Below, one piece after another: positions 2,195 to 53,833 of a stretch of 56,875 bases of DNA; positions within the stretch are counted from its first letter, which is position 1; each line of letters starts with the position of its first letter. Under the pieces are notes generated by a model. The model did not search any database and was not told where the DNA came from. It saw only the letters and a program-made list of their open reading frames with translations. The stretch is from positions 1-56,875 of the forward strand of contig MQRK01254813.1 of NCBI GenBank assembly GCA_001938485.1. Direction: 5' to 3'. Position numbers and translations under genes: made by a program. This stretch comes from Girardia tigrina. Its lineage: Eukaryota.

Positions 2195-3874
2195 ATTACT
2201 ATTAAATGGAAATAAATTTATCGATTTTTAACAATCAAATGTGGAATATTACATGATTTTATTGATTTTTGAAAATAATGTTTTATTTTATTTAGTTAAG
2301 TAACAACATAGTCGAATTTCATAATAGTTTATTTTAAATTACACAATAATAATTGAATATTATAACAACATTCAATTATCCGACTTACAATTTTTAATTT
2401 GAAACTCTTGTGTATTATTTCAACAATTCAATGTTGCGCGATTTCAAGATCTTGGATATTTCAAAGCCACTTCGTTAGGAGTTCGGAATTTCACAATTTT
2501 GTTGAGGTTAAAAGTGAGAAAAATTTTAAAAATTAAATTTTTTAATTAACAGATATAATCATAAATTATTTTTCTATTTACCATTGTCCAAGATGTAAGC
2601 AAGGTAGAGATGATCGACGAGAAGCAAGTCAAACTGATGACACAACAATTGATTCTGCTGCTACATGAAAGTAGAGAAGCGAATAAAGTTTTTTGCAATT
2701 TGAATTAGAGGAAAATAAAAAAAAATTATTTGTATATAAAGGAGATATCAAGTTATTGCATAAAAAGCTAATTCGAAAAATCTAAATAGTCAAGAATAGT
2801 GGTATTTCTACCAGAAAGTTTCCTGAACATGAGAGAGCAGCACATTTAGCTCGTATTAAAGAAATTAAAGATTAATATAAACAATTACGTCGTGATCTTG
2901 AAAAAAGAAATTGGAAATTTAGAAGTAAGAGATTCAAGAGAAGTGTCACATCTAAGCAAATGTTGAAAAATTCGGGTAAATAGAAATAGAGTGGTTGTTC
3001 GCCTACATCGGACTAAAGGTGGGACAATGCTCAAGATGTAAATTAAAAAGAAAATTTAGAATTGGAATTTTCGATTTGTCGTGCTCCCTCTTTTTTCAAC
3101 ATTTTGTAAGCTCAGAGCCCCCATCCGTTTTTTAGAGTTCAATGGCAACTCGTGTGTGCTTTGTGCTCTTTTCGATGATCACTCATGGTTGGAGGGAACA
3201 GACGCGCCTCCTTCGTGCACATCAACGAATTGTGTGTGCGTCGGAGCGCCTTCGGGTTCTCTACCAGTATCGAGTATGGTCCGACTGGCAGCTCAGCTTC
3301 TGGAGGGGTTGATGTTACTAAAGCCTGCATTTTAAATTACACTGATGAATTATTAAAGTAAGACAAAGAGAGCTCCAAGGAGATAAACGACGGTCCGTCC
3401 GCGTGCCCCTTGCATTCTGCGGCCGGCCTGCGTCATCTCCAAAAGGTTCTTCGTTTCGATTACAATCGAATTATACTTTATATTTATTTCGTGCTTGTAC
3501 TTAATTACGTTAATACGAGATTCTGTTAGATTCGGTTGTAATATATTATTTTATTTACTAGAATGTTTTGGCAATTCTTTATTTTAACTCGTCTACTTTA
3601 ACTCATTCAATTTTAATCTTTTTAATAAAGAAGTCCCTTTGAGCGTGGTCCAAGTGGGTGATGGCCAAAACGTTTAATCATGGTGATTGTTCCAACTGGT
3701 TTAAACTCAATAGTGGTTAAGACAAGTCGGAACTCCTCATTGACCGTATTAGCCGTAGACAGAATTTTTATTCCTTTCAACATGATATTGTTGATATTGC
3801 GGCTGATTATTAGAAGCAAAAGTGGTGGCGACAGTACACCCTTCGGGATGCAATCAAATAGAGTTGGTGTCAAG

Positions 3875-4802
3875 CCGCGATGTTTCAATGATCTGGTCTT
3901 AAATCTCGATGAAGATAAATCAAATGTTTCATCGAATTTTCAAGCGATGTTTAATGAGTTAACAGTTTTCCTCCAACAAATCAACATCAAAATTGACGAG
4001 TTCATCCCGCTCAACACAGTTCAAATTATCTTTTCCAAATCAGTGACAAATAATTTCGAAATCCAAAATAATTTATGTAACACAATCGGTTACGGTTGTT
4101 ACTTAAACGCATCTGGATTGAACCATTCGTGCTGGCCGAATTCCGTGTACACTTTTCAAAACAACCGACTTGTATTAAAAGCCCTTAAACGAATCAAACT
4201 CGGAGATCAATTGTTCACAAAATTACACTGACCCACTGCAGCTTCGCGCGGAGCGCCGCTCACGATTGCTCGAGCAGGATTTGTTTGAGTGCCGATGTGA
4301 AGCGTGTAGCGACGATCAACTGGAGCGAGAGATGTCTCAGCTCTTTTGCAGTCAGCCAAGTGGTTGTCAGGGAACTGTTCAGTTGATCGGAGACCCGTCG
4401 CAAGATTACCAGTGTGATAAATGTGGACACATTGAGACAAAATCAGAGATGAATTTTCGACACTCGATTTTTAAAGCCAAATTGTTCCACATCAACAATC
4501 TTATGTTCAATAGCAATTATGAAAAATCGTATGGGCTTTCTAGGAGAGGGCTGGACGAGTTTAATTTGAAGAACCAGAAAGAGAATTCCGAAGGACTTTA
4601 TCAGTTAAGCTTCGGAGAGCACGTTTTTGAATCCGTTATATTTTTTCGGTGATTATCAGGCGGTATTGGAAATATGTCAGTTGAAGTCCGGGTCTCGGTC
4701 GTGGATTCACGAGAGACTCGTCCGATTTCTGGCACTGAAAACCATCCTATCGCCAGGTGTCATCTCGAGAAATACAAGAAGTTGATCGAGTATTTGAGCT
4801 GA
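3875..4802 (+). pseudogene. Intronless, frameshifted fragment of a SMYD-family SET lysine methyltransferase
   Basis: IGYGCYLNASGLNHSCWPN...GDQLF, a 1-nt shift near 4219, then NYTDPL..ERR..L..FECRCEAC (post-SET), a second Cys cluster and a TPR-like tail (GTENHP). No N-terminal SET half or MYND. Confidence 0.8.
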
Positions 4803-8379: not shown

Positions 8380-10858
8380 GTGAGGCTCCGAGTTATCTTC
8401 CGAATCGTCAGTCCGTTTTTAAGGACAACAAATTAAAAGATGTTGCAACGTTGAAAATTTTAGACGGTTGGGTAGAATAGGGTTATCTAATCGAGTACAA
8501 TGAGGAAGAAATGGGTAAATCGATAGGATCCATACTGATATTTGGAATATTACAGGCTAATAAGTCCAAGATAAGACCCATTTTTGATTTTAGAAAATTA
8601 AACATTTACGTGGACGTTTATAGTGGTTCTGCGGACACAAGTTTTGAAAAGCTCCGCGATTGGCGACGTAGGGGTTCGACTTTTTCAATGCTTGATTCGT
8701 CAGAGGCGTACATGCAGATTCATGTTCATAAGGAGATGTGGCGTTACCAATCTTGTATCATTAATAACAAAAAATATGCTTTAACTAGGATGGGTTTTGG
8801 TTTAAACATTGCACCAACTATAATGAACGAAATTGTCAGGTGGATTCTGAACTCTGACACCAGGATGCGTGAAAATACTGACTCTTATATTGATGATATT
8901 TATGTATATGAAAGTTTCATTTCTGTTAAAGAAGTAGAAAAAGTATTCAATAACATCGGTCTCAAATGTAAGAAACCGGAAAATCTGTCACATGCCAACG
9001 AAGTTCGAGTTTTAGGAATGAAAGTCTTTAAGGACCAACATGTAGTGAGATGGAAGAGGGACAATCAGGTACAGGATGAGCTGGATGTGGAATCAATTTC
9101 ACGTCGTGAGTTATATTCGTTATGTGGACAATTAGTATGAATACATCCGGCAGCTAATTGGCTACGCCCGTCATGTTCATATCTTCAACGAAGGTGGGAT
9201 GAAAAGATAGACGAAGAATTATTCGAGAAGATTAAATGGGTTTTAAAGTCAGTGAGGGAGACTGATCCTTGCAGAAATTTATGGGCTATTGATGACTGCA
9301 GGGAAGGTATTATATGGTGCGACGCAAGTTCAATAGCCATTGCTGCGGCGTTAGCAGTCAAAGGGAACATAGTCGAGGACGCATCATGGTTGAGAGAAAC
9401 TGATGATTCTAGACATATTAATGTAGCAGAACTAAAAGCAGTTATAAAGGGTTTAAACTTATGTGTGAAATGGGGTTTAAGAAGCGTGATAGTAAAATCG
9501 GATAATAAGTCAGTAGTTTTGTGGGTAACCACAACAATCTCAGATCGCGAAAAATTAAATACCAAAGCTTCATCTGAGCTTTTAATAAAACGAAGACTGT
9601 CGATGATCAAGGAGCTGTGTCAGGAGTATGGGATCGAGTTGAAGATCGAGTTTTTTAATAGCGAAGATAACAAGGCAGATGAGTTGACAAGAATCCCAAA
9701 ACAATTAAAAAGAAGCAATTGTTTTTTATCGGTTACGGATGATCTACTTAAGCTACAGCAACTTCATGATAAGTGTCATTTAGGTGCAAACAGAATGCGA
9801 TATCTATGTGCGAAGCAAGAAATAGGTGTGTCAAACGCGGATATCAAAGATGTCAAGAATGTCAATCCATCGATTCGGCACCCGTAAAATGGAAAACCGG
9901 TAGGCTGAGCGTCAACGAAAACTGGACAAGACTTGCTGCGGATGTTACAAAGTACAATCAACAAAAATTTTTAAGTGTAATCGATTGTGGTCCTTCTCGC
10001 TTTGCGATATGGAAATTAATTAAGTCTGAAGACATCAAGTCAATTGTCTCAGAATTCTCAAGTTTGTTCTGTGAACGCGGGACTCCCAAGGAACTAATTA
10101 TCGATAATTATACCACATTTCATTCGGTAGAATTCAGCAAACTAATGGAAAAGTGGAACGTTCGAGTCATGTATCGTGCCATCAGTCGACCCAACTGCAT
10201 CGGAATAATAGAAAGGAATCATAGAACAATCAAAAGAATTGCATTCAGATCAAATATCAGCATTTTGGAAGCCTTATGGTGGTATAATAACACACCATCT
10301 GAAGGAAAAGAAACACCAAGCTCGGCGCTATATAGCTATTTGCCAATAGGGTTAGATATAATTGGAAAAAGTGAAAAGGAGCCGTTCTGTGGAAATCCAG
10401 ATTATGTTGAGAATTAATTAGTGTGGGTAAAACCGGAAAGCAGTACACCATGTACACAGCAATGGGCCAAGGGTCTTGTCGTGAAAAGAATAGATCAAAG
10501 GAAATATTTAGTAAATTGCAACGGATTTTGTGGTACAAGACATATCGCAGACATTCGACCTAGACAGCCTGACTTGGTTGAAAATTCCAAGTCATACTAG
10601 TATGAATATGGAGGAAACTGCATCACTACCAGACAATCAAACACAAGAGGAACAATCATTGAACAGTAGGCCTAGTAGAGAAAGACGAAGACCGCCTTAT
10701 CTAAATGATTACATTGTGGATTCAGATTCTTCTGTGGACGAATCTGGTGGGAGTGTTGGATATTAGATATTTTAATTATTTGAAATATTTAATTTATTAA
10801 CAACATCACAATTTGGATGCAAACATTTATTTACAACACAAACAGATTCTTCACAACA
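8380..10858 (+). mobile_element. 5'-truncated Ty3/Gypsy-type LTR retrotransposon (RT-RNase H-integrase, PPT, 3' LTR)
   Basis: RT 8511-9140 (RPIFDFRKLN, MGFGLNIAP, YIDD). RNase H 9252-9700 (WCDASS, HINVAEL, NKADELTR). Integrase 9773-10417 (SVIDCGPSRF, DNYTTF, IERNHRTIK). Stops and frameshifts throughout. Confidence 0.9.
10754..10858 (+). repeat. Short (105 bp) 3' LTR
   Basis: Follows purine-rich GGTGGGAG. Termini TGTTG...CAACA. Confidence 0.65.
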
Positions 10859-13984: not shown

Positions 13985-15022
13985 ATGGAAGATAATTCCC
14001 AACCTAACATGGTGGCAGCGCTAGCGGATTCAATCACGAACCGGCTGATTCCCGACATGTTCCAGATCGGAAAAGACCTTGAGAAATTTATTTCTCGCTG
14101 CAGAAGATATTTTGAAGCAGCGGAAATTAACCAAAAGAAATGGCAAACATGTATTTCTCCATGATACATGAAGATCTCTTGGAAGCATATGAGAACACAG
14201 CTGGTAAAGCTGATAATTTTTTAGGATCGGCTAAGACTAGTGTTGGAGAAGCCGAGAGCAGCCGCAACGGATTGGGAAAAACTGTTGAGTTATCACAAAG
14301 GTGCTTATAACGCACAGACCTTTTTCAAAAAAGTAGACCGGTTAGTAAAAAATGCGTTGTCGCATAGACTCGAGGAAGAGGAGTTAAAAGCTCAAATGTT
14401 AATTCATTGCATTGGTGATGAAGATGTTATTCGTGAAATTAAATTACAGAAACTAAAGAGGGTCAAAGAAATATCTGAGTTCGTTGTACTCGTAGACGAA
14501 ATAAACCACGAAAAGAAGAGCAGGATCAATGCTGTCCGAAGTTATCGAGCTGTTGTTCAAAACAGCAGGGCTCCTGAGGTAACTAAAAAATGGGTAAATC
14601 GGATTCCGCCGAAAAAACAACTCTCAAGAGTGGAATCAACCGAGTCCAAATGCTATACTTGTCAGCAACCAGGACATTTCAGCAGAAATTGCAAACAAAG
14701 AAGACCTGTGCAGTGTTGGAATTGTAAAGAGACTGGGCACATCAGTCGAAACTGTCCTAACAGAGAGTCATTGGTTTGTTTCTTGTGCGGAAAAAAGGGA
14801 CATAGGCGAACATAATGTCCAGAAATACGCTGTGAAAAATGTGGTCGGTATGGGCATCTAGCAGCGACATGTTTAGTGAACTCTAACAGACAGAATAATG
14901 GTTACGACAATGGAAGATCGAGAATGCAGAACAATGATCGAAAATTTAAAATCAACACCATAAACGAAGATGAAGAACGCACATTTGATTATAATGAAGA
15001 AAAAAACGAAGAAAATTCTTAG
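13985..15022 (+). pseudogene. gag: Gypsy-type gag with four CCHC knuckles, cut at the gag/pol junction
   Basis: CYTCQQPGHFSRNC, CWNCKETGHISRNC, CFLCGKKGHRRT*C, CEKCGRYGHLAATC. AAAAAAC at 15001-15007. Homologous to 39576-40652. Confidence 0.85.
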
Positions 15023-18420: not shown

Positions 18421-18849
18421 TCATCTGATAAGGTTAAGAAATCTGCTCATCCTTCGACCACCTCTCACTGTGTGGCTGCTCGCAAAGTTCTTGCACTGAC
18501 CTTTAACAGGGATCATGCAAATGATGAACTTCACCAGCTTAATTCTGCCTTTTCTGGTCATATTTATTCTATTAGACCTGCAAAACCTCGTTCTCCATAT
18601 CTTGGCTGCTCAGAAGTGAACCCTAATAGAGTAGATCATGACAGAATTCAAAAAACTTATGTTGTAAATCCCAAGGCTGCTATGGCCCTAATAAGACCAC
18701 GGGTGAACGCATCTGCCAAACCAACTCCTGCGGATTTTACATATTTTGTCAAACGGAATAATTGTCATTTTAATTTCCTTCCTGACTCTTTTGACTGTCC
18801 TATTATGACAGGTCCTGCCTTCTCTCCTCACTTATTAAAACATGCATTT

Positions 18850-19186
18850 TTATAACTCGATTTCCAATTGCAATTTCTGCCAGGATACATCCCTCAATCT
18901 TTAAATAATCACCTGTTACTGATTGTAAAGCTTCATGAACTTCAATAATGTCTAATTTTTCTGATGTCAATAACATTTTTTCATTAACTATAGTTATTGA
19001 ATATCCGGTGTCTACCAAAGCACGAATTTTTCTGTTATTAAACAATACCATCATTGTTGGTCTCCTTCCGGATTTAGTTTTAATAGTAAAAACATAATTA
19101 CTGGGTACTCCCCATTGATTCCTTTTTTCAATGTTCCTGTGTTCATTATCATCAATCTTTTCTATATCTGGATTAATTGGTTTCAT
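18850..19186 (-). pseudogene. Retropepsin aspartic protease (start of pol), truncated
   Basis: RPTMMVLFNNRKIRALVDTGYSITIV...LQSVTGDYLKIEG. Confidence 0.85.
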
Positions 19187-19472
19187 TTCTTACAATTTAA
19201 TAAATGGATAGGAAGGAAGAGGTGTTAAATTTTCAGGTGGATAGTATAAATTTTGATCTTGATTTCTCAAAATTTGAATTTGATTTTCCTATGTCGTCCA
19301 CTCATTTTTGGATACTCCTGTTGGTTGAGTTTGATCTGTACCTGTTATTTCGTTTCCCTATATCATCTTCATTCCTTCTTCCATCACTCGTTGTACTTGG
19401 ATCACTAAATGAATCATCTGAATTTGACTCAAATTGTACCTTTTTATTTTTTCCTTTCCGATTTCGACGACT

Positions 19473-21376
19473 TTAATATTTTTTACACTGTTTAACTATT
19501 GTTTTTAATGATTTAATTTCTTTACTATGGTGATGGATAATTAAAAATTTCGCTAAAGTGGGTACACATCCCACGATCAATTGCCAAGATACACCAACCA
19601 TTGTATATAATCTATAAGTCGACAGAACTTGTGTTAAGACAACTTTTAACAAAACGTATATCACATAAACACCAATAAAGCCTACACATGCCTGACCAAA
19701 GAAAACAAATTTTCCCCAAATCTTTTTTAGAGTATTATATGCTGCTTTTTGATATTGATCAACGCTTAAAAAATTATCATAATTAACCTGAACAACACCT
19801 ACTGGTAGGACAGTCTCAACAATTTCTGTTATAAATCTTTTTCGTTTTGAAGGAATCAGTAAATTTCTTCGAGCATCCTCCACTTCTTCAGGGGAATAAA
19901 TACATGTTGTAGACATTTGATCCAAAGATGTAAAGTTTATAAGATAATCCAATTTTGTCAATTTCAATTTTTCGACATTTTTCACTTCTTTATTGTTTGG
20001 TAATGAAATCCACGTGTCAGGTGTCACTCGATATAATGGGGCTGTAATATCATTGCAATGTAGTAATACTGATTTAGTACAATTTTCAGTTAAAACTATT
20101 GTTATAGGTTCCACATACCTTAATTGTCCCTGATAATTCACTGGGAGTTCGTTAGTACACTGATTGAACTTAATTAGTTGAACAGAGACTTCATTACATT
20201 TATAAGTATATAGGACTTCTCCCATCACTCTACCGAATACTCCATTTTATGAAACTAGCATTGGTGCTACTAGGCTTGGATTTGTGAAAACTAAACCTAT
20301 CCGGTTTTTCAAAATTTCCCTATTTAGCTTACAATCATTCAATATTACTTCTCGATACATATTCTCAATAGTAAATTGGTTAAAATGAAATGCAAAATCA
20401 ATTTTATTACTTAGATATTGTGATAATTTCACATCAGCGTTATGCACAATTCCAGCATCTGGAAGTTTTTCTTTGGAAACATATAAACCTTTATAATTCG
20501 TAGTGTAAATAATTTATCCACAAAACTTCTGTTTATCTTTCCTAATAAACCTCATTCCATCGGATGTAATCGAGGACAATAAAACAGTTCCTAATTTCTT
20601 TTGAATTATTGGATATGCCTTTCTAGTTTGGTACTTTTTGGTTTTAAAATATCCGGTCTTTCTCTAATTTGCATTCCCTGAGCTTCAATAAAGTCTGCTG
20701 ATTTCAAAAATGCCAAATTGCACTCTTTGTAATTAACATTATATAATAAAACTGACTCTCCAGTCTGACAACTTGATTTTCTAAATTTGCAAAATGGATG
20801 TGATTGTAATTTTCCAGTTGCATCGTCAAATATTCCATCAAATGTTCTTAATTTGGTTTGATACTCTTCCGAAATCATAATTTTTTGTATAATTTTTCCT
20901 CCCAATTTTACAGGTTCACCTTCACAGTCACTATTTACTTCTATTACTCTCTTTCTAACAACTGATTCTCTCATTATTGCTCCTTCTTTAGCTGCGAGTT
21001 TTAAAGTTTCATCAATTTTTAATTCTTTCGTTTGAAATGCAGCTTCACAATTTTCAGGTAATATCTTCACAGTTCTGGGAATTGCATTTATCTTGATAAT
21101 AGAAGTATGACTCCATTTTCCACAATGATAAATATAAGTTGCTCTTTTCACAATACATTCTCTTACTTTAGCTCTACGAAATCCAGATTCCTGATATAGA
21201 TGATACAAAACATTTGTTTTCTCTTGAATATGTAACGGGTAAGCTTCTGAACATTCTGCTACATCTAGAAGAGAATAAATTTTTCCGACTTCAGTCTGAG
21301 AACAATCATACGCTACAAGAGCTTGTGTTTGATTCATTCCAAGAATAATAAATATGATTAAAGTAAACCACCACAA
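19473..21376 (-). pseudogene. env: Chuvirus-like (class III type) envelope glycoprotein
   Basis: Signal peptide LWWFTLIIFIILGMNQTQA, then LVAYDC, SLLDVAEC, HCGKWSHTS, GEVLYTYKC, CTNELPV, and IWGKFVFFG followed by a TM segment. This motif order is typical of chuvirus G and its retroelement-captured copies. Lesions at about 20230-20610. Confidence 0.8.
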
Positions 21377-21676
21377 TTTAGAAGTTTTTTCTTTGTTAAA
21401 TACATGTTTTGTCTTATCATTATTTATATTATCAATACTTTTCATAACTTTTTGTAAAAATGATTTATCTATTCTTGGAGTCAATGGTTCTTGGATTTCA
21501 CAAATACTTTCTCTTTTCATGTCATTACCAATTTCCTCATTATCAATACTCTCCAGAGGTACTTCTGGTTCACATTTTATCTCATTTTCGGTGATCATTG
21601 GTATAATTTCATTAGTATTCCTCATAACATTATTATCCATAAAATTTTTATCATAATCATTAAAATATTTACCCAT

Positions 21677-21895
21677 GAAAATCACTTGAATTTAATTTAT
21701 TTCACCATGTAAAATACCATAATCATAAACGTAATCTTCATCTTCTAATTCTTGATTTCTGTAAAATAATTTAATTGTTCCAGAGTTGTCAAGTATTCGT
21801 TTTACTTTTTCTCTAAGTTTTTTAACTTTAATACACCAATGTTCAGCTACATGAACAATACGATTGTCAGGAATATTAAATGCTAAAAATATTTT
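21677..21895 (-). pseudogene. Ubiquitin-like domain 2 (not in ORF track)
   Basis: KIFLAFNIPDNRIVHVAEHWCIKVKKLREKVKRILDNSGTIKLFYRNQELEDEDYVYDYGILHGEIN*IQVIF. Same frame as ORF 20606-21685. Confidence 0.7.
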
Positions 21896-22189
21896 TGATA
21901 CATTTGAATTTTCTTTACGAAGATACTTCGAAAATTTCTTTAGAAGATCGAAATCGAATCGAAGAAGAACGAAATTTTGTATTTTTGTGTATTTGAGCTA
22001 CCAACAAAGATTTAATTAAATGAATTAATCTTTCAGATACCGAAAACGTATCAATTTCCTTTAATAAACTAATAATGTATTCATCATCAAGATAATCACA
22101 TTTAAATTCATTAATTAATCTCAGTGCAACATCTTTTATACACATTTCAGTTTCTAATTCATATTTCTTTTCAGTATCCTTTTCTTGTA

Positions 22190-22859
22190 TTTTAACTTCC
22201 ACACTATTAATATACGAAGGTAATATTCCATAATCTAATAAATATTTATCATGTTCCATTACTTGATTATTAAAGATCAAAATTATGAGGGGTTAATTTA
22301 AATTTTTATCTCGCCTGAATAGTTTATTATTTTAAATTTAAAGGGTAAAATATTTTTATGTTAATTTGCTTATTAAATATTTTAAAAAATTAAAAATCAT
22401 ATAATAAAAGAAAATCATAAAAAATAAAATATTTATTTAAAAATAAAAAATATCTTTAATGTATCTATTAAATATCTTAAAATTAAAAATGTCAAGAAAA
22501 CAAAAATATTAAATATTNNNNNNNNNNNNNNNNNNNNNNNNNNNNNNNNNNNNNNNNNNNNNNNNNNCAGGATTTTAAAAATTAAATCGAAAAGAATTTA
22601 ATAGATTAATTTGGGTCGAGATAATTAATTTAAATTAACAGGAAAATTTGTTTTAGAAATGTGAATTGTTATATTAATAAATTTTGATGTTTTAAAAAAA
22701 ATGAATTCTGATATAGACGTTGCAACCACTTCTCACAAAAATAAAATTTTCAACTTCCATTTTATTTATTATCAACTCTTTTAAATCATTAACCTTACTC
22801 TGAGGTGATAAATCTATCATAGTAACTTCTCTTCCGCAACTATTAATCATAATTTCAAG
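22190..22859 (-). pseudogene. Ubiquitin-like domain 1, split by the insertion at 22284-22737
   Basis: Rejoined translation: LEIMINSCGREVTMIDLSPQSKVNDLKELIINKMEVENFILIFNNQVMEHDKYLLDYGILPSYINSVEVKI. Confidence 0.7.
22284..22737. mobile_element. Nested solo-LTR-like insertion (contains a run of N)
   Basis: AAAAT TSD at 22279-22283 and 22738-22742. Termini TATGAG...CTCACA. Excision restores the reading frame. Confidence 0.75.
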
Positions 22860-23294
22860 TTTTTCAAATATTAAAATCTGTCTTAATTCTTTTCAAAGAT
22901 TTTTCATCAATAACTTTATTTTATTTTTTGAATTGTCATTATCATGTAAATAATTTGATAACAATTTTAATAAATTTGCAGTTTTCTCTGTAGTAACTTC
23001 CATTCCCGCAATCTTTGCTGCATAATTATATACTTTCTTAGTACTTTCTTTATTTAAATCTATTTGATTTGATAATCGATTTATACTAATTCTAATTTTA
23101 TCCAATTTTAAATCATTAATTCTCAAACAACTTTGTTGCTGTTTAATTTCTTCATCATTTGACTGATCTGATTTCCTTTTAATATTCTTACATTTCAAAC
23201 CATTAAACATAGATGTTTTATTAGACGTTTCATCTACTCTAGCAAATAATCTGTCAAATTGAGTTTTTAACTCATCAAATTCATATTTTATAGT

Positions 23295-23756
23295 TGTTAA
23301 GAGAACTCACACATTTGACAGAACATTTATTACATTCACAAATTTTATCATCTTTATGATGATCAATATTATTGCTTTCACTAGAATCCATTAATTAATT
23401 TTCAATATCTCCCATTATAATCTGAACTACACATGATAAGATTATTTTATTTAAAAATATTTAATTTAAATTTGATTGGCTAAAATAAAATATTTTTATA
23501 GACATTTTTAAACATTAATTTGATTTTAATTATATAAAAATTTACAAAAATAAAATCATTAAAATTATTTAAAAGTTGCAATAATAAAAACTAAAAATTT
23601 GAATATTAAATCTAAATTTAAATAAATTAGTTTCAGATTTAAAAAATTAAGTATTGATAATCCATCTGGTTAGGAGAGGCATAATCCCAAATCAACATAC
23701 AACATTTAAACATGCAAACACTACAAAAAACAATTATACACCAAATATTCCTCACA
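23295..23756 (-). mobile_element. Solo LTR of the 'TGTGAG' family
   Basis: ATAGT TSD at 23290-23294 and 23757-23761. TG..CA termini. Excision restores the frame (...DDDSTNTIKYEFDELK...). Confidence 0.9.
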
Positions 23757-24979
23757 ATAGTATTAGTACTATCATCATCTGAAGATACACAGCCAACATC
23801 GACAGGTTTATCCTGGAATTTTATTTGTTTCTTTAAAATTGATGGTGATGATTGTTTTATATTGGATCTACATGATCTCTCAACATGTTCATATTTTTTG
23901 CACTTTTCACATTGAATTTAGCCTTTTAAATTTACTTTGTCACGTTACGGTGACGGTGTTAACGATCTCGTTTTAAATCTACAAACATTCGATGTATAAC
24001 CCTGTTTACCACAATTAAAGCAAGTTTTAATATTTGGTGATTTGATTGTTGTTTAAACCAACATTGATTACTAAGATGACCAACTTTGTTGCAATTATAG
24101 CATCTTGGAATTCTTTGGTCAAATTGTTTTTGGTCATTTCTAAATCTTGGGTGATCATTTTGTTGGAAATTGTTTGATCTGGTAAACTTAGGACTTCTGT
24201 CTCCGTTGTTTTTGTTGTTATTTTGGAAATATTGATTTCTTGTCCTTCTGTCGTCTGGTTGTTGGGATCTTTGCATTCTAGGAGAAACATAACCATCACT
24301 TTCATCTTCAGATTCACTTCTATTTATAATTGATTTGGGTGGACGTTGAAATGATTTCATGGTAGTCATAAAAACTGGGCGAGCTTGACCAATGTTTGAA
24401 TTCATTTCAATTATCATAGCTTTTTTCACTAATTCATCAAAATTTTCATATTCAGCCAGACTCAGTGCTGCTTTTAAGTGATTTTGAATTCCAGACCAAA
24501 ATTGATCCTCTACAAATTTATTTGTTTGTTCCGACCACATTTCCTTTTCGCCAAAAGCTTTTTCTGCTAGGGTAGATAGATGAAAGCGAATTCACTAACT
24601 GATTCATTGCTATTTTGCACTCTTGTATAGAATTTCTTTCGTAAAATTCGTCCGATAACTCCGCTGATTAATTTTTCAGCAAGGGCATCCTTTATTCTTG
24701 ACCACTCAACCACTGTACGTTTATCAATTTGATTAAAAGCTTCACGAGCTGCACCTTTCAATACAAAGGTAATCTTTGAATCATTATTTTGTCTGACCAG
24801 CCATAGGCCGATGCGTACTTATAGTAATCAGTCATAAAATCAACAAAATCGACAGGATCTCCTCCATATTGATTCACAGGTAATCTCTGGAAGCTTGCCA
24901 AATCGTTATTTACTTCTCTATTTTCTTCAATCATGATTTTATTTCCAAGTTTTTTATTCCTTAAATAATATCTAGACAC
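23757..24979 (-). pseudogene. gag: gag (capsid plus three CCHC knuckles)
   Basis: QRLPLY/LKGAAREAF, RVQNSNESVSEFA, DQFWSGI. Knuckles CYNCNKVGHLSNQC, CFNCGKQGYTSNVC, CEKCKKYEHVERSC. Confidence 0.85.
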
Positions 24980-25126: not shown

Positions 25127-25138
25127 GTCGGCTCACCA
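25127..25138 (-). promoter_or_regulatory. Primer-binding site TGGTGAGCCGAC (tRNA uncertain, Arg-like)
   Basis: TGG-initiated, 9 nt inside the LTR end and upstream of gag. Confidence 0.55.
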
Positions 25139-25147
25139 AATATATGA

Positions 25148-25765
25148 TGTTGGGTATTACAATTAAATCTAGTGTCTATCTTTATTTATTTTAAACTACT
25201 GATCTGACTCCAAATGACCAAAAGGTTTCTTCCAACAATAATATATGAAGAATGAACAAAACCTTTAAATAATAATTTTTTCTGCAAACAACAATTGAAG
25301 TACAAATATAAATTCAACTCTATTAGTACGCTACAACTCAAAGATCACATTTCGATCAAACAGTTACAACAACTTCTTAGTTCGAGCGATGCTAGAATGA
25401 TTTATTTAAAACTTAACTTCTCCTTTACAGGATACTAAAAACTTTTTCTATTATTTCTTTATTTAAAAAAAACGATAATAAAAGAAATTAACAAACAAGT
25501 TTACCGCACATATAATTCAAAGTCAATTTTCTTTTGAGTTATCAATTGAGAGTCTGTAACTGAAATAACTATTGCTTATATACTAGTTTTTCCTAACCTT
25601 GAAAATTGAATAACAAAAACAAATCTCAAAATATTTACAAATATTTTATAAATTTTATTAAAATAACTATTATAATAATCAAAAATTATTAATTTTAACC
25701 AGCGAATTATTTTAAATTTTTTATTAAATTTTAAAATTTAATTTACATTTTTCGGAACCCCAACA
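25148..25765 (-). repeat. 5' LTR of the env-bearing element
   Basis: Perfect TGTTGGG...CCCAACA termini adjacent to the PBS. Confidence 0.7.
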
Positions 25766-32074: not shown

Positions 32075-32520
32075 AATTAATCCCTTGATCATTTTATTTA
32101 CAAGATCCATTGTTTATTACAAGAAACATTGTGACAGAGACGCATACGGAAAATGTAAAACTTCTATGCTATCTATGTAAGTAAATATTTAATTATAAAA
32201 GATATATTCCCATGGCACATAATGTCTTTGGTCATCGTAAAAATAAAACAACGATTCCTTTACCCATAAATTATAATTTCAATCATCATTACACAAGTGA
32301 ATAAATTAATCCCTTGAACATTTTATTTACTAGATCCATTGTTTATTACAAGAAACATTGTGATAGGGATGCATACGGAAAATGTAAAACTTCTATGCTA
32401 TCTGTGTAAGTAAATATTTAATTATAAAAGATATATTCCCATTGCACATAATGTCATTGGTCATTGTAAAAATAAAACAACGATTCCTTTACCCATAAAT
32501 TATAATTTCCATCATCATTA
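32075..32520 (+). repeat. Tandem duplication of about 229 bp abutting the lectin ATG
   Basis: Near-identical copies at about 32075-32291 and 32304-32520. Confidence 0.9.
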
Positions 32521-33294
32521 ATGGAACTAATATTTGCATTAGTTCTATTAAGTTTATATTTTTATCCATCAATCGCTCCTGCTTGTCCGACNTCATTTCA
32601 AGCTTGTGGAAATATTTGTATTTATGTTTTTCCTAAAGCTTTAACTTTTTGCGACTCGAATGCCTTTTGCATTGGGATGGGGGCCCGATTAGCTATTGAG
32701 AAAGATCTCCCATCAATTTTCAATTGCAATATTTTACAAAATGACACGTCTTATGGAATAGGAATGGCCGATTTATTGAATGAGAGGTATCAGAATAAAA
32801 CTGGCTGGATATTTTCGGATGGATCACAAATACAAAATGTGACCTATTGGTTTAAAGCGGAACCTAAAAACAATGACGGTTTGGCAGACTGTGTTATGAC
32901 ATTATCATTAAGATTATCTAACGTTCCATGTATCGGCGGAAAACGACCATTTATTTGTGTAGCTGACACAAGTCTAAATGCATCATATAAAAAAATTGTA
33001 AAAGCTTTGGCACCAATATTCAATAATGATGATGAAGAAGGATGTTACGATTCAGTGAAGATAAACAGCGCCTTTGCCGATAGACACGTTGAATGTGCAT
33101 CTCTGTATGATTTAGTNNNNNNGTTATTTATTTATTTATTTATTTACAGAAGTCTCGAAAAGTCTTACTACAAATCTTTTTACTTTGATTCTATTCAGAA
33201 CGAGTGTATCATGGTCAAATATATCGACAGTTCCTTACCTAAATCGTGGGACACAACCGCAAGTAACTGGTCCAGATATGCGATAGCGCCGTGA
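32521..33294 (+). CDS. Secreted C-type lectin domain protein with a C-terminal PAN/apple-like segment
   Basis: Signal peptide, CIYVF..LTFCDSNAFC..GARLA, GWIFSDG, WFKAEPKN, DCV, C..RPFIC. Probable short intron at about 33105-33149 (GTATGA..TTTACAG). Confidence 0.75.
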   Translation: MELIFALVLLSLYFYPSIAPACPXSFQACGNICIYVFPKALTFCDSNAFCIGMGARLAIEKDLPSIFNCNILQNDTSYGIGMADLLNERYQNKTGWIFSDGSQIQNVTYWFKAEPKNNDGLADCVMTLSLRLSNVPCIGGKRPFICVADTSLNASYKKIVKALAPIFNNDDEEGCYDSVKINSAFADRHVECASLYDLXXXLFIYLFIYRSLEKSYYKSFYFDSIQNECIMVKYIDSSLPKSWDTTASNWSRYAIAP

Positions 33295-39575: not shown

Positions 39576-40652
39576 ATGTCTTTTGAGCAAGAACCCAATA
39601 TGGCGACCATAGCTAGCAACTCGGATCATTTGATTGGGAGACTAATGCCGGAAAAATATCGGAGACAGGACAATGTCGAAACATTTATATCGGCTTGTGC
39701 TCGATATTTCAAAGTGGCAAAGGTCCAGGAAAATATTCAGGAAATATTGGTGATAGGGTTATTGTCCCACGAGTTAATACCAATATATGAAAGTGTTCCT
39801 GCGGATATAAAAGGATATGAAGCCTGACTTCGTGAAGCTTTCCTTAAGAAAAGCACATTTATGGAAGACTTAGAAGAGGCTGTACATTTTGAGAGGTCCG
39901 GAGAATCGTTCGAGGAGTACTTTGCTAAAGTAAATAAATTAGCAGAGAAATTAGCAAAACACCAATGGACAAAAGAGGAAATAGAAAGATGTCTTCTAAT
40001 TCACGGATCAAAGGACAGTGATGCGAAAAAGGAGATTAAACTCAGAGACATTAAGGAGATACCGGAAATAAAGAACTTGATGAGGAAAGTAGATGAAGTC
40101 CGGACATCTGAAAAACCTGTTCATGCGGTAAGACCAACGTACAGAGAAGCGGTAAAAAGAGGAAACACAGCCGGGAATTCGATGAGGAAAACGGAAACAT
40201 CGGAGAGACGACATCCTTTACGTAACAACAATACATGCTGGAACTGCAAAGAAATAGGCCATAGAAGCAGTGAATGTAAGCGAGAAAAGAAGATCACGTG
40301 CTACGCATGTGGAGAAACGGGCCATGTGTGCCGAAAATGTAAGACGATAATATGTAACAGGTGTAACGATCCGGGACATAAGGCGGATGTGTGTTACACG
40401 AATCTGAACCGACGTCATCACAGAAGGAACGAGTATCAAAAGAGAAAAGAGTATCATGGGAGAACACAGAGGGACAATCGACAGCCACCACGGAGTCAGG
40501 AAAGAGACGGGAGAAAATGTAAGTCGGAGGAATACCTGAGAGGTATTCAAAGAGGACGATAGATAGCAATGATGGAAGAAGAAGAGTGCAGAGAATCTGA
40601 AAAAAACGAGCAATGCCAAGACGACGAGGAACCGATCTTGGCACTACAGTGA
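39576..40652 (+). pseudogene. gag: Gypsy-type gag with three CCHC knuckles
   Basis: CWNCKEIGHRSSEC, CYACGETGHVCRKC, CNRCNDPGHKADVC. Two in-frame premature stops. Confidence 0.85.
40601..40643 (+). promoter_or_regulatory. -1 ribosomal frameshift signal
   Basis: A AAA AAC in the gag frame, a 6-nt spacer, and an 8-bp stem TGCCAAGA/TCTTGGCA. The -1 frame is open (ORF at 40613). Confidence 0.8.
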
Positions 40653-42193: not shown

Positions 42194-42299
42194 TGTAACA
42201 TTAACACAACAATACAACTTGTATCAACAATTAAATACAACGAATATCTGACAATTTCCATATTGCATACAAAAAATTATTATTATTATTTAAAATTAT

Positions 42300-43745
42300 T
42301 TGAAATTAAAAATAAATTTAAACATTACATATTTTTAGATAATAAGAATTCAAATATTAATCATCCATCTGGGTAGGAGAGACATATTTCCAAATCAACA
42401 TACACATTCAAACACAAAACATCAAACATTCAAAATATTTCTCACATCCCCCTCGATTTAAATGGCTTTAGCCATTCAACATTTCTAATAAAACTTCTTC
42501 CATCTTCAAGCTGTAACTCGTAACTTTTTTCATGATTTCTTTTCACCACTGTTACGGGACCCATGTAACGGCCATCTTCTTTTGAGACATTTTCCTTCTT
42601 AATTAATACTTTGTCTCCGACTTCTAAAATCCTTCTTGTCTCTGTTTTTGGTTCAACTGCTTTCAAATTTTTGTTATCTTCGTAATTGTTTTTCCACCAA
42701 TGTTTCAGTTTTCTTCAAAATACACTCTCGGTCGGTGACATGCCTATCGTAGCTTGTACAGTACTATTTAACATAAACTCGACTTCTGATAAGATTTCTG
42801 TCCAATCTTTATGATCTCCATCCTTCATTCTAATATTTAAAGCATCTCTGATCGTGCAAAACTGTCTTTCCACGATTCCATTTGTGTTATGATGATATGG
42901 ACTCGAATAAAATACCTCAACTTTAATTTTTTCCCCATGTCCTTGAACAAAACCGATTCAAATGTTTTTCCTCTGCCTACGTGGATTTCTTTTGGTGGTC
43001 CGAATTTCGATATCCATCTGTCCAATAATAATTTTCTAACTGTTTTTTCATCTTGACTAGCTGCTGCATTCAAGCTAATATATCTATTAAACTGGTCAAT
43101 TATTGCAAATATATATTGACATCCATTTATATTTCTTTTGAATGATCCACAAAAATCAATGTATATTTTCTGGAAAGGTTCATCCGCTAATTGCTTTATA
43201 TGTTTTTCTTTTATTTTGGTTTTTAATGTCTTCCTTTTTTGATAATTTATGCAACTTTGAACGATTTCTTTTATAAATTATCTCATATTTTTCAAAATTG
43301 GTGTTTAATTCATTCTGTCTTTTAGTTTTTGAAAAGCCTCATAACATTCTTTAGTCCAAATCAGTTTCTTATCCTTATTTTTACCACATAAACCTTCCAA
43401 TACTTTTGCATATCTTGCGTAATCCTTTATAAATTTTCTGTAGTAATTTGTCAAGCCCAAAAAGCTTNGTAAATGTTTAATGCATGATGGGCTTTGAAAC
43501 TTGCTTATCGCGTCAATCTTTGATTTATCTGTTTCAATACCATCTTTGCTTATTATATATCCTAAGAATTTAGTCTTTTCTACTAAAAATTGACACTTCT
43601 CCGGATGTATTCTCACACCTGATTCTTTGATTTTCTACAATACGTTTTTTACTCTTTGAATATGTTCTTTCTTATCTTTTGCAAAAATCAAAATATCATC
43701 CAAATGTACGACTGCTTCTTTCCAATTCAAATCTCCTAAAATGAT
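42300..43745 (-). mobile_element. Gypsy pol remnant (RT end, RNase H deleted, integrase, PPT, start of 3' LTR)
   Basis: VHLDDILIF, KCQF..FLGYII, FLGLTNYYRKFI, integrase SPYHHNTNGIVER. PPT GAGGGGGA at 42447-42454, then TGTGAGAAATAT from 42446. Confidence 0.9.
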
Positions 43746-44339
43746 TACTAACTTTAATAATAGAATTTATTACACTTGTTTGATTGTAAAATGAGCGCGA
43801 TGAAATTTGTCATGAAGAGAAGATGCTATTAATAAAACAGCTGAGTGTATTTATATGAAATTTCAAGAGAAAAATTAAATAATGAATGATGATTCAGAAG
43901 AAATATGGAAGTCTTTCTTTAGTGGCATCCACAACGCCGGCAATCATGCTGACCGTGTTCTCATTGTGGTTGTCTCTGGCCACGCACCTCTACGCTCGCG
44001 TTTTGCGTCACAACTAATAAGTTACTCATTTTATCTCTATATAGTTCTACCTTGCGGAACACGACGCTCAAACTCTCGGGTCTGCTCGAAACATCTGGAA
44101 TGGTCGTGTCTTGGACGAGGATCGTTGTCTCAATCGCAAATCGTCTTATTGTCTCAGTTAAAAATCGTCTCGTCCAAATTCCCACGCATCAAATTAGCTG
44201 CCGTAGTTTCGCAACTGATTGATTTAAACAAATGCGAAACTATTCACTTGTGTAACCGATTATCACTAAAATCGCGAACGAGAGAGTTTGTCCATCGAAT
44301 CGGCGACGAAATTCCAGTCGGAAAAAAAAATTTGGAAAA

Positions 44340-44605
44340 TTTGAGGACAGATATTTTTAAAAATAAATCAATCGTTGAAGCAGAGGAATTCTACTATAAT
44401 ACAATTACAAAAAATCAATTGTACTAATCACAGACGAATTGGTCGTCAAGACGACGGGGGTTGCGATGTATGTTTCATGGGAAATTTTAATTTGAAAGCG
44501 AATTGGTTATCTTATTCTTTTGGTGTTAATTATATCTGGGAGTTTGATGATCTGGAAATTTCGACGAAATTTAATTGTTTTGTCAGAACATTCGATCCTT
44601 CAGTG
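44340..44605 (+). pseudogene. Captured METTL24-like (Methyltransf_22) fragment; second copy at about 52670-52933
   Basis: C..HRRIGRQDDGGCDVC...SYSFGVNYIWEFD...FNCFVRTFDPS follows the R.G..DGGW.VC / YSFG.N..W.FD / C.V..FDP pattern. Confidence 0.65.
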
Positions 44606-44656
44606 ACAAAAAAAATCCGAATGAAATTCCAGCAAGCTAAAAATAGGCAACCCACG

Positions 44657-44859
44657 ATTGGCCGATCTAAAAATAGATTGGCCCATCTGAGAATGATGTT
44701 AATTTTTTGTGAAAAATGATTTATTGAAATTTAACTTTTCCGAAAAATATTCGGTGATTTCGATTCTTGTTTAAATTAATTAATTTGAGAAATTAAATAA
44801 ATTTTGGCGCAAAGTGATTTTTTTTAATCTGATTTGTTTTTTAAAAAAGCAGCCATTTT
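44657..44859 (+). promoter_or_regulatory. Candidate LTR promoter
   Basis: Two inverted CCAAT boxes (ATTGG at 44657 and 44677) and YY1-like GCAGCCATTTT at 44849-44859, present in both LTRs. Confidence 0.4.
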
Positions 44860-45636
44860 TTTTATTTTAAAACTTTTTCTTGTTTTCTGGAAAATAGAGA
44901 TTGAGAGGTTCGAGTTTCGGTGGCCGTGGTTTGATTTCGTACAATTTTTTTTTAAAAATGGAATCGGTACCAAACAACACGATTTACATGAACAATCTCG
45001 ATAAAAGAATCAAAAAATAAAAGCTGAAAAAAGCTCTATTTGCCGTGTTCTCTCAATTCGGACGAAATCTCAAAATTATGGTCAGTACACGATTAAAATT
45101 GAAAGGTTTGTTGTGTTTGAAAATATCAAATGCCCTGAAGCTTATTGTACTAAGTCAATTGAAAATAGAGAAATAAAAAAGCTCTTAAATGAAAATGATT
45201 ATGAATTGTATATGAGAAAATCGTTAAATCGTGTTAAGCCAAAGTTGGTCAATTCATATCAATGTCAAACTCCGAACTGTGACTTCTTCTGTGAATTATA
45301 TGACAAAAATCTGAAGACCTTAAAATGTCCAAAATGTAAAGAGGAAAATTGTCTTTCTTGTAAAGCTGTCCACCCAAAAGAGAAATGTAAAGACTATCAA
45401 GCTAGAAATATTTGTGCCAGCTAAAACCGCGATGCAATCCGGAACCTTTTGGACGAGGAATTGGAGAATCGAATCTGATCAGCCAGAGAAAGATGTGCGA
45501 ATAACGTTGGAAACGGCAATCGGGAAATTTGAAATCAGTGAGATTATTAATTTAAATCCCCCGTGTCCCGCAACCCACCCACCATCGCTAACACGTCGCA
45601 ACCACAAAGCTGCGCTGACTCTTGCACAACCATTTC

Positions 45637-46597: not shown

Positions 46598-48280
46598 AAG
46601 AGAAATTTGACAAGGAGACGTAATCAAGCCTAGGAGGTACTTCGAACGAATGAGGAAGTGCAGAAAAGAGGTGAAGATTACGAAAATTAGTTCGAAAAGG
46701 CGATAAAAAAGTTCGAAGATCTCGTACATTTGGGGAAGGAATTAGGTCACAAAGATGAAGTGGTAAAGCTGATGGACAAGATGACAGAGATCGAGAACAA
46801 ACATGATGAATATCAGTCAAAATTTGAGGCGGAGACCGATCGGAAATGGAAATCAACTGTAGCTTCAGAAAACAAGAATTTCAATCATTCGCCAGCAAGT
46901 TTGGGAACGTTCAGATTGAAACGATTGCAGCTGCCCAGGTTCTCTGGGAATGTTATAGAATATGCCAAGTGGAGACAGATTTTCGACGAATTTGTCGACA
47001 AGATGGAGATTCTAGATGTGGACAAGCAGCTGCAATTGGAAGAATGTCTAGACGGTCAAGCTCGAGAGCTTGTGAAAAATTTCGGATTTGGAGGAGGAGC
47101 TTATAAAGCTATACTAGACAAACTTGAGAAGTTTTATGGTGGTGAAAATCACAGTTACTCGGCGATTGTAAAGGAGGTAGCCGAGTTTCGCCCCATTTCC
47201 GAAGTCACAGCTGCACAATTGGACAAAATTGTGTACTTGCTGGATAGTCTTGTGCTGAGATTAAGGACAATTTGGAAGGCAGGGGAATTTGGCAATGGAC
47301 TGCTCTACCAAAGTCTGTTGCAAAAGCTGCCAGTGGACATAATATTAATGTGGGAGAGGCACCGCCAAGGATCGAATCTTGGAGAAGAAATGGTGACCTT
47401 GAAAGAGTAGCTGGAGAAGGAAGCAGAACTCCAAAGAATGGCGGCCGAATCAGTCCATGGCATCGGGATGTTGAGTGCCGATAGAAATAGGCGAACGATC
47501 ATAAACAATGATCGAAAAAAATCCTTTGTTTCTATGGCTGCAGAGTTTCAAAAATCAAAGAGAAGTCATCAGGGAACAGAGAAGAAAGCTGTGTACAGAA
47601 ATTATGAAAGAGGATATTGCAGATTCGGCCAAAATTGTCGGTTCTCGCACCCAGAGCTTTGCAAGAACATCTTCAAACAATCGTGTAATACGGTCAACTG
47701 CAGATACTTTCACAGAAAGATCGGTACTGAAAACCGCCACGATGCAGAGTCCAATGATGGACATAAAGATGAACACGGTGAGTCTGGAAGTAGAAATCAC
47801 ATGCTGATCACGAGCACCAGCACCAGACAGAGTCAACAGAGGGAGCAACAAGGAGTTATTGCTCTGCGAACCGTAAGCGCGTGGGTGACGAATGGTGACA
47901 AGTGGTTGAGAGGAAATTTTCTATTAGATGACCCCAGCACAGAGACTTTCGTGAGTCAAGCCTTCGCGAATGAATTGCAGCTGTATGGAGATCAAGCCAA
48001 GATCAGTGTCCAAGTTCTAGGAGGAGCAAGAAGGTTAATACCAGTGCAGAGAGTGAAATTTCAAATATGTGATGAAAAAGGACGAGTTAAAGAGAGTGTC
48101 TCAGCACTTGTGGTGAAAAATGTGACCGAGCCGATGGAAATAGTTCATTGGAATCAGGCAAAATCCAAGTGGAGTCATTTAAAAGGAATACGTTTTCCGA
48201 GGATCGGCAAGAAAGGTGTGATTGATGGACTGATCGGTGCAAATTATTTGAAATTGCAAACAGCATTAAAAGAAATTTGA
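46598..48280 (+). pseudogene. gag: BEL/Pao gag (DUF1759-type) and aspartic protease
   Basis: LKRLQLPRFSGNVIEYAKWRQIF..LEECLDGQA..LQKLP. CCCH fingers at 47591-47713. Protease-like FLLDDPSTETFVS and IDGLIGAN. Confidence 0.85.
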
Positions 48281-51200: not shown

Positions 51201-51735
51201 ATATGAGGCAATGGTAAAGTCCGTCAAAAGAGTTCTAAATAAAATCCTACCGGAGGCCGATGTGACGGAAGAGGAGTTGACAACAGCTTTGATCATGACG
51301 GAGGGGATTATAAACGGGAGACCATTGACTATGAAGTGTGAAGATCCTGTTGAGGAAGTCCCTTTGTCACCAAATAATCTGATTATAGCTGGGTGGGATG
51401 GAGAGCATCCTGGAGAATTAGCAGGATCCACTAAAAGTCGTATTGTTGCCCGATGGTGACATGTTCAGAATTTAACCAAACAGTTCTGGTGTAGATGGAG
51501 GAAAGAAGTTCTGATCTCTAAGGAGAACTAGAGAGAAATAGAGGAGAGGAGAGATTAGATTCTTACCTGGAGATAATGTATGGATATTGGAAGAGAATGC
51601 CAGACAGGACATTGGAAGATTGGGAGAATTACACAAGTATTCCCAGGTAGAGATGATGTGGTTCGTGTGGTGGACGTCGAGATTGGAAAGAAGGTCCACC
51701 GAATGCCTGTGAATAAATTGTGTAAGATGTAATTA
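48281..51735 (+). pseudogene. pol: BEL/Pao pol (RT, RNase H, integrase) with several stops and frameshifts
   Basis: LPHFPV..KLRIVFDAA, YMDA (mutated YMDD), FCDAS..AYG, SIPRLEL, GVDYAGP, SDNGTNFVGA, PPGAPHFGG. Confidence 0.95.
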
Positions 51736-53285: not shown

Positions 53286-53458
53286 ATGGAATCGGTACCA
53301 AACAGCACAATTTACATGAACAATCTTGATAAAAGAATCAAAAAAGAAGAGCTAAAAAAGCTCTATTTGCCGTGTTCTCTCAATTCGAACGAAATCTCGA
53401 AATTATGGTCAGTACACGATTAAAATTGAAAGGTCAAGCGTTTGTTGTGTTTGAAAAT
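53286..53458 (+). pseudogene. Captured U1A/U2B''(SNF) RRM1 N-terminal fragment; second copy at 44958-45124
   Basis: [34 protein letters not shown](G/E)..L.IMVSTRLKLKGQAFVVF. Confidence 0.9.
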
Positions 53459-53737
53459 ATCAAATGCCCTGAAGCTTATTGTACTAAGTCAATTGAAAAT
53501 AGAGAAATAAAAAAGCTCTTAAATGAAAATGATTATGAATTGTATATGAGAAAATCGTTAAATCGTGTTAAGCCAAAGTTGGTCAATTCATATCAATGTC
53601 AAACTCCGAACTGTGACTTCTTCTGTGAATTATATGACAAAAATCTGAAGACCTTAAAATGTCCAAAATGTAAAGAGGAAAATTGTCTTTCTTGTAAAGC
53701 TGTCCACCCAAAAGAGAAATGTAAAGACTATCAAGCT
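53459..53737 (+). pseudogene. Captured RBR E3 ligase (HOIL-1/RBCK1-like) fragment covering the RING1 end and IBR; second copy at 45125-45403
   Basis: IKCP..C...IENREIKKLL..Y..SL..NSYQCQTPNC..C..KCPKC..NCLSCKAVH..CKDYQ. Confidence 0.8.
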
Positions 53738-53833
53738 AGAAAAGACAGAATATTTGTGCCACCTAAAACCGCGATGCAATCCGGAACCTTTTGGATGAGG
53801 AATTGGAGAATCGAATCTGATCAGCTAGAGAAA
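53738..53833 (+). pseudogene. Captured NDUFS4 (complex I 18-kDa subunit) fragment; second copy at about 45404-45491
   Basis: RKDRIFVPPKTAMQSGTFW(T/M)RNWRIESD, compared with the family motif R.VRIF.P...AMQSG...T..W.IEFD. Confidence 0.75.

Follow-up and report, generated by a model that had tools for sequence, protein, structure and literature searches.

What two ubiquitin-like (UBL) domains may be doing between the Gag and Env regions of a retroelement is the question raised by this locus of Girardia tigrina. The window, by which the whole analyzed stretch of 56,875 nucleotides is meant, carries on its minus strand a decayed, virus-like, gypsy-type LTR retroelement with the order GAG-ENV-POL. 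The element belongs to subfamily A, which is compared below with subfamily B and with families C and D. Its parts, and the sequences inserted into it, are as follows.

25765 to 18825, minus strand: whole element, with LTR, primer-site-like stretch, gag, UBL region, env, and protease
25148 to 25765, minus strand: 5' LTR with TGTTGGG...CCCAACA ends, matching the 3' LTR of copy L032
25127 to 25138, minus strand: primer-binding-site-like stretch, beginning with TGG a few bases past the LTR; seen in A and B copies too
23762 to 24934, minus strand: gag, with capsid from the first codons and then zinc knuckles; broken in the window copy
23295 to 23756, unstranded: second insert, with TG...CA ends and an ATAGT duplication
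23103 to 23294, minus strand: spacer downstream of the zinc knuckles, coiled-coil-like and of low complexity, as judged from sequence
22870 to 23102, minus strand: helical domain of module 1, with an in-frame stop near its end in the window copy
22743 to 22865, minus strand: N-terminal part of UBL1, two strands and a helix
22284 to 22737, unstranded: 454-bp repeat inserted into UBL1, with an AAAAT duplication
22182 to 22283, minus strand: C-terminal part of UBL1, without GG
21900 to 22139, minus strand: module 2, helical domain; the modeled part shows three helices; frameshifted in the window copy
21671 to 21895, minus strand: UBL2, a beta-grasp domain whose first helix is basic; the window copy has a stop codon in the last strand
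21374 to 21670, minus strand: acidic-then-basic linker without the AT-hook or Bcl-2-like domain found in families C and D and in L166
21320 to 21373, minus strand: stretch of hydrophobic residues resembling an internal signal; its end is a small-residue site directly ahead of the env ectodomain
19536 to 21319, minus strand: env, a fusion glycoprotein of class III (gB type; PF24664) with two hydrophobic stretches toward its C terminus; disrupted in the window copy
18825 to 19535, minus strand: env tail, linker with an LPxY/YPxxxL-like stretch, and aspartic protease; the element ends here by truncation

The assignment to Ty3/gypsy is based on the LTRs, which have TG...CA ends and are followed by a primer-binding site, and on the order of pol, RT having been compared only pairwise among local families. 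The two LTRs of one copy are 96.7% identical over 299 bp. The order PR-RT-(RH)-IN is present in copies L028, L074, and L085, with RNase H not scored separately in A and B. The primer-site-like stretch follows the LTR end after 6 to 11 bases in A and B copies (25127 to 25147 in the window), and a tRNA gene pattern search returned no match for a cognate tRNA. Env matched PF24664 (E values of 3e-43 and 4e-21) with the protease downstream, which shows that the env region separating gag from pol is of class III, gB type. Gag has three zinc knuckles in the copies; it starts with capsid sequence and has no Gly2, and a matrix-sized leader ahead of the capsid was not seen. The element is compact, at about 13 kb in one copy, and about 12.4 kb separate the LTR copies in one element. 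Within the otherwise divergent linker from the env tail to the protease, LPxY followed by YPxxxL is common to A and B (about 19230 to 19200 in the window; L036, L074, and L082). By its motifs, this stretch could be either a late-domain candidate or a protease cleavage site.

Copies were sought in the 1.43-Gb, AT-rich assembly. For subfamily A, 40 of 986 first-look candidates were scored, and the 39 copies other than the window element were 92 to 94% identical; those examined were broken. The text of a paper on flatworm errantiviruses takes more than 98% identity as its criterion for intact copies (PMC13524379). All 150 candidates for subfamily B were scored. In one locus (L037; G000 C245028), a subfamily A fragment abuts a subfamily B element tail to tail. 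Besides the insert within UBL1, the window copy is disrupted by two stop codons, one directly ahead of UBL1 and one in the final strand of UBL2, by a frameshift that falls between the two modules, by the second insert, and by the 3' truncation inside pol.

UBL1 had been described as visible only after removal of an insertion at 22284 to 22737, and the copies bore this out. The insert is 454 bp long and flanked by the 5-bp target duplication AAAAT, and its flanks are joined directly in other copies. It was absent from the site in 18 of 19 other copies, the 19th (L008) ending too close to show the site. The insert has TATGAG...CTCACA ends and is a repeat in its own right, with all 40 scored matches at 95 to 100% identity (250 candidates); it is probably a solo LTR. 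The second insert is probably a solo LTR of another family, and further copies of its repeat lie at 1522 to 2195 and 42291 to 42414 of the window.

The rest of the window also contains mobile sequence. A BEL/Pao element (DUF1759, CCCH finger, RT, peptidase A17, and integrase) occupies 46691 to 51456 and is flanked by two long direct repeats, 8.3 kb apart within 43777 to 45617 and 52106 to 53959, which encode IBR and weak NDUS4 matches. Pieces of other LTR elements (RT, RNase H-like, integrase, and zinc knuckles) were found at 8481 to 10414, 14225 to 14812, 39828 to 40559, and 42840 to 43634. Short frames matched a SET domain (3662 to 4228; E value of 2.5e-6) and a C-type lectin (32506 to 33291; E value of 2.2e-5).

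The two peptides quoted in the preliminary description were recovered in place in the minus-strand translation, and the domain boundaries were corrected to about 21895 to 21671 for UBL2 and about 22865 to 22182 for UBL1. The window's own UBL pieces gave no significant Pfam match (best E values of 0.12 to 0.14, for UBL2). Among natural subfamily A frames from insert-free copies, the PF00240 cutoff was reached in four of seven (25.4 to 35.5 bits) and missed in three. In insert-free frames UBL1 alone scored 25.2 bits (Pfam E value of 1.4e-5), and UBL2 alone matched PF11976 with an E value of 0.0015 and PF00240 with one of 0.02. The database protein P0003, 94% identical over the query, passed both PF00240 and PF11976. 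Subfamily B frames showed a weak ubiquitin match in Pfam in only one of seven. Against a profile built from distant lineages only, window UBL1 and UBL2, with an X at each break, scored 30 and 67 bits, and neither score was reached by any of 500 shuffles. The proposal of two ubiquitin-like domains between Gag and Env is thus upheld by the Pfam matches of uninterrupted copies, by the profile scores, and by the UBL2 model described below. The two domains also resemble each other, as had been noticed (local score of 72, reached by 0 of 1,000 shuffles).

A C-terminal GG, the criterion for a conjugatable ubiquitin-like modifier, was found near the end of none of the 162 module matches. The domains lack GG, are in frame with Gag, and are kept across copies and subfamilies under purifying selection, in agreement with their earlier description as integral domains. 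Two features were added by the present analysis: each UBL is the second half of a module that begins with a helical domain, and the modules share the frame of Env as well, adjoining its internal signal. UHRF1 was considered as the UBL donor and was not established, the best PDB sequence match having an E value of 0.007 to 0.03 with ISG15 and ubiquilin about equal.

The structure prediction suggested at the outset gave a beta-grasp fold for UBL2; for UBL1, support came from homology. Module 2, modeled from a 26-row alignment, reached a pLDDT of 86 and showed three helices followed by a beta-grasp. In Foldseek the UBL2 model placed SUMO1 on top (E value of 7e-6, rmsd of 1.6 Å). In a wide VIA search the best match had a Z score of 10.7 and an rmsd of 1.3 Å over 76 aligned residues, and ISG15, ubiquitin variants, midnolin, Dsk2, and BAG6 fell within one Z unit (10.7 to 9.8), indicating that no single UBL family is singled out. 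Other fold matches were Rad60 SLD2, Rad23, and FAT10, and identity to ubiquitin-family structures was 10 to 25%. UBL1 is probably also a beta-grasp domain, judging from its homology to UBL2 and the Pfam match given above; a single-sequence model of both modules together reached a pLDDT of 35.

The helical part was barely covered by the Foldseek and VIA comparisons, and it gave no match to PF08711 or the PDB. The stretch between the UBLs had been considered as a third beta-grasp (FERM/RA-like) domain, an idea that was dropped when it was modeled as helices. An origin from the TFIIS N-terminal domain (TND), suggested by eye, was rejected as well: with shallow profiles, hhalign probabilities against the TNDs of Med26, TFIIS, and IWS1 were 0.2 to 0.4% and not above shuffles. 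The assembly does contain several near-identical TND exons (L139 to L153), which by eye are Med26-like, TFIIS-like, and Elongin-A-like.

The repeating unit is therefore a helical bundle followed by a UBL, about 140 to 160 amino acids long, with about 142 aligned positions in the iterated profile. Subfamilies A and B each have two modules. Modules 1 and 2 are 21 to 23% identical to each other, and like modules are 33 to 35% identical between A and B, indicating that the duplication is older than the split of A and B. Families C and D, which are more distant, have a single module, and so do the relatives in other samples. The module is kept at 13 to 35% identity among A, B, and C/D, and it occurs in five proteins from other samples (P0005 to P0007, P0009, and P0011). 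A representative library gave eight matches: one A-like (P0004), five with the module (P0007 twice), one 56-amino-acid fragment, and one with a UBL only. The fungal tandem UBLs of P0010 were rejected as a relative, the match running through the UBL only. A search of 90%-clustered proteins found only P0003, one over proteins of 1,746 to 4,985 amino acids found none, and viral contigs contained no relative of the module.

Burro-like giants of the same genome have a Pfam ubiquitin match between capsid and env. A second region in them matched the whole module (hhalign probability of 84% over 112 columns), a third scored below 1%, and one control window reached 23%. Of everything that lies between gag and env, only the module recurred in all env-bearing families examined in this genome; its signal was clear in A to D and weak in the Burro-like families, and its number ranged from one to perhaps three. 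An apparent third module in L126 adjoins N gaps and was set aside as a probable assembly duplication. Two Burro-like families (L119, 1 to 9999, and L121, 2 to 8014; G000 C249044 and C246636) have natural open frames of 3,300 to 4,100 amino acids, which contain capsid, knuckles, UBL, env, protease, and dUTPase and up to three possible degenerate helical-UBL modules.

Downstream of the module, families C and D carry an AT-hook and a weak Bcl-2-like match, both missing from A and B. The same pair, with the Bcl-2-like pattern WI/YL...GGW, lies between the module and the Env signal in L094 (2241 to 2903) and in the metagenome contig L166 (2503 to 3057). In L166, the contig of P0005, the same order leads into the signal and then into a PF24664 env, all in one frame interrupted by one TGA. 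This single in-frame TGA (L166, 3058 to 3060) separates the frame of Gag, module, and Bcl-2-like domain from the env signal and could be a mutation or a read-through site.

Frame continuity was followed through the spacing of neighboring domains, pairs with N being excluded; copies retrieved through protein searches overrepresent open frames. Spacing was in frame from CCHC to coiled coil in 14 of 23 copies, from coiled coil to UBL1 in 11 of 19, from UBL1 to UBL2 in 30 of 37, and from UBL2 to env in 27 of 32. Across env the count was two of five, and from env to protease it was two of four, none open over the full span. P0003 is a natural protein of 799 amino acids that runs from Gag to UBL2 in one frame. 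The env tail and protease share an open frame in L036 and L085 (partial open frames), the module-env-protease region of L094 (family C) is free of stops, and open frames of C-type copies join the env start to the protease. A single polyprotein up to Env is well supported, and in A and B it likely continues to the end of pol.

Ahead of the Env ectodomain lie a basic patch and then a hydrophobic stretch, and behind it come two more hydrophobic stretches. The stretch ahead of the ectodomain forms a hydropathy peak in subfamily B and in other families and lies below the threshold used in A frames. This arrangement suggests a topology in which Gag and the modules would be cytosolic, Env luminal, and Pol cytosolic, with cleavage presumably occurring at the internal signal-like stretch.

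Selection was estimated by counting, from segments that contain no stop and are close to saturation. In the comparison of A with B, dN/dS was 0.53 (0.30 to 0.88) for UBL1 and 0.51 (0.26 to 0.88) for UBL2, so that the proposed check among family copies found purifying selection on both domains. Core values for the same comparison were 0.19 for capsid, 0.16 for NC, 0.11 to 0.24 for env, and 0.26 for protease. Within subfamilies the UBLs gave 0.27 to 0.44, except for A1 at 0.71 (five sequences). The helical parts had values of 1.13 and 0.68 between A and B, with intervals that include 1, and were indistinguishable from neutral. Shifted-frame controls were mostly near or above 1, and three went down to 0.52 to 0.63, indicating that the purifying signal is moderate. 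The UBLs are 38 to 46% identical between A and B, the coiled-coil-like spacer is 47% identical, and capsid, NC, and env are 62 to 76% identical. By these estimates, selection on the UBLs appears purifying yet relaxed, with surfaces that diverge fast. Few alignment positions are invariant (G126, N133, and nearly K89). The first UBL helix has a net charge of +3 or more in 23 of 26 rows, and the UBL as a whole carries a negative net charge in both subfamilies, A and B.

A UBL between Gag and an in-frame Env has already been published, for the giant planarian gypsy elements Burro and GYPSM1, in which it is a Ubi2/SUMO-like domain (PF11976; PMC6431247). Burro was compared through its published description, and env identity was measured against the Burro-like families of this genome (about 30% for the window element). 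Like the window element, Burro encodes one polyprotein with Gag, three CCHC knuckles, the Ubi2/SUMO-like domain, and an in-frame env followed by PR-RT-IN; its env is described as having mononegaviral similarity (PMC6431247). It differs in size, its internal region reaching up to 25 kb with an open reading frame of about 4,900 amino acids, and its published account describes no helical partner domain (PMC6431247); the window element, for its part, has two UBL modules. Unlike Burro, the A and B frames scanned contain no MATH, BIR, ankyrin, BCL2, or dUTPase domain; BCL2-like and dUTPase signals are present in other families of the genome. Flatworm errantiviruses share the GAG-ENV-POL order and an HSV/gB-type env (PMC13524379). 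By a count made by eye, 91 of 148 env residues are identical to the printed segment of Smed_errantivirus_1, which agrees with the window element in gene order and env class (PMC13524379). Ubiquitin is not mentioned in the text and seven text supplements of that paper (PMC13524379). The literature searched contained no tandem helical-UBL module in a compact element that lacks Bcl-2.

Ubiquitin folds inside viral polyproteins are also known from the ubiquitin inserts of pestiviruses, whose cleavage is GG dependent. The element resembles these and engineered Gag-ubiquitin fusions (PMC2958808) in that respect. It differs in that both carry near-exact ubiquitin, whereas the domains described here have 10 to 25% identity, no GG, and no intact L8/I44 patch. 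As a comparison of how things work, with no homology claimed, the foamy virus Env leader is a cytosolic, membrane-anchored N-terminal part of Env tied to budding and ubiquitin. That leader is a separate, short protein that the host ubiquitinates (PMC3705266). The leader proposed here is joined to the end of Gag and brings ubiquitin folds of its own.

The reading that we tentatively favor, while holding it as possible rather than probable, is a membrane-tethered, matrix-like adaptor. The UBLs are the second halves of a tandemly duplicated helical-bundle and UBL module in the stretch from Gag to Env, and they would act as nonconjugatable adaptor domains of a cytosolic, membrane-tethered leader that links the capsid side to the Env-bearing membrane and stands in for a matrix protein. 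Membrane insertion would occur at the internal signal, signal peptidase would free the Env ectodomain, and the element's own protease would later trim the polyprotein. This adaptor is favored by the frame shared from Gag through both modules into Env and by a Gag that starts at the capsid without Gly2, together with the kept fold, the helical partner, the lysine, and the basic first helix. The few invariant positions suit a kept fold better than a kept host-binding face, and the module persists across A, B, C/D, other samples, and the Burro-like giants while the AT-hook and Bcl-2-like cargo is lost in A and B. A precedent is offered by foamy virus, in which a Gag without a membrane-targeting domain is reported to rely on the cytosolic Env leader peptide (PMC3705266). 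However, in A and B the UBL as a whole has a negative net charge, an AT-rich genome yields lysine-rich proteins anyway, and Burro-like UBLs have no basic helix. The fast evolution and the lack of a clear purifying signal in the helical parts between A and B would be unusual for a core structural layer, Env-to-protease continuity in A and B amounts to the two in-frame spacings and two partial open frames, and the variable number of modules and their host-modulating neighbors in relatives also argue against the adaptor. More doubtful is the wider proposal that in these enveloped flatworm retroelements the matrix protein has given way to a ubiquitin-fold module, which follows the nucleocapsid and is anchored through the Env signal peptide, so that one membrane-threading polyprotein would covalently couple capsid, matrix equivalent, fusogen, and enzymes. 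Ranking close behind the adaptor, and somewhat doubtful itself, is the possibility that the modules are host-modulating cargo, which a leader anchored in the endoplasmic reticulum would either release or display and which would serve as a decoy or an adaptor toward the machinery of ubiquitin, SUMO, or the proteasome. Fast surface change and varying copy number would suit such a conflict, and the same interval of relatives has Bcl-2-like and AT-hook domains (weak Pfam E values of 0.025 to 0.37). Burro is described with MATH, BIR, and BCL2 domains (PMC6431247), and the IAP region of Burro1 is cited as protecting stem cells (as cited in PMC13465017). The best fold matches include SUMO1, ISG15, and Rad60 SLD2, but they are tied among many UBLs and indicate no single partner, and no surface patch is conserved across lineages.

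The remaining readings have less in their favor. A built-in degron, which would send surplus or misinserted Gag-leader polyprotein to the proteasome or p97 and so offset the equal output of a single frame, is unlikely. One frame would imply equimolar Gag, Env, and Pol, the fold matches include the proteasome-binding UBLs of Dsk2, Rad23, midnolin, FAT10, and BAG6, and the I44 and V70 equivalents are hydrophobic in most UBL2 rows; yet UBLs on the Gag side of the membrane anchor would remove Gag and not surplus Pol, and the equivalents of L8, G47, and K48 are lost. These losses, read from positions mapped through the alignment of 26 rows, also bear on the budding signal put forward in the preliminary description, in which the UBLs would imitate monoubiquitin and, as an intrinsic late domain, bring in ESCRT. 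It fares poorly and is quite unlikely. GG-less ubiquitin fused to Gag is reported to drive ESCRT-dependent release, in a manner that requires L8 and I44 (PMC2958808), but none of the 26 rows has Leu at the L8 position and 5 have Ile at the I44 position (a hydrophobic residue in 21), with Asn at the latter in UBL1 of subfamily B; the G47 equivalent is Gly in 3 of 26 and the K48 equivalent Lys in 0 of 26. The UBLs would be cytosolic and near the membrane by the proposed topology, and the natural frames scanned contain no PTAP/PSAP motif; against this, LPxY followed by YPxxxL in the env-tail linker of A and B offers a conventional candidate, though it may be a protease site. Very unlikely is a role as passive, fast-folding spacers that would keep a long polyprotein soluble and Gag away from the membrane. 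The kept fold, the drifting surfaces, and an omega of about 0.5 would agree with spacers, but the fixed pairing of helical domain and UBL at about 20% identity across lineages and the near-invariant lysine exceed what a spacer needs.

GAG-ENV-POL elements have no obvious matrix protein, and an established coupling of capsid and envelope in them was not found in the literature searched. The helical-UBL module is a small, foldable candidate for this coupling. If the modules instead serve as decoys, the ubiquitin system would join the apoptosis cargo known from Burro.
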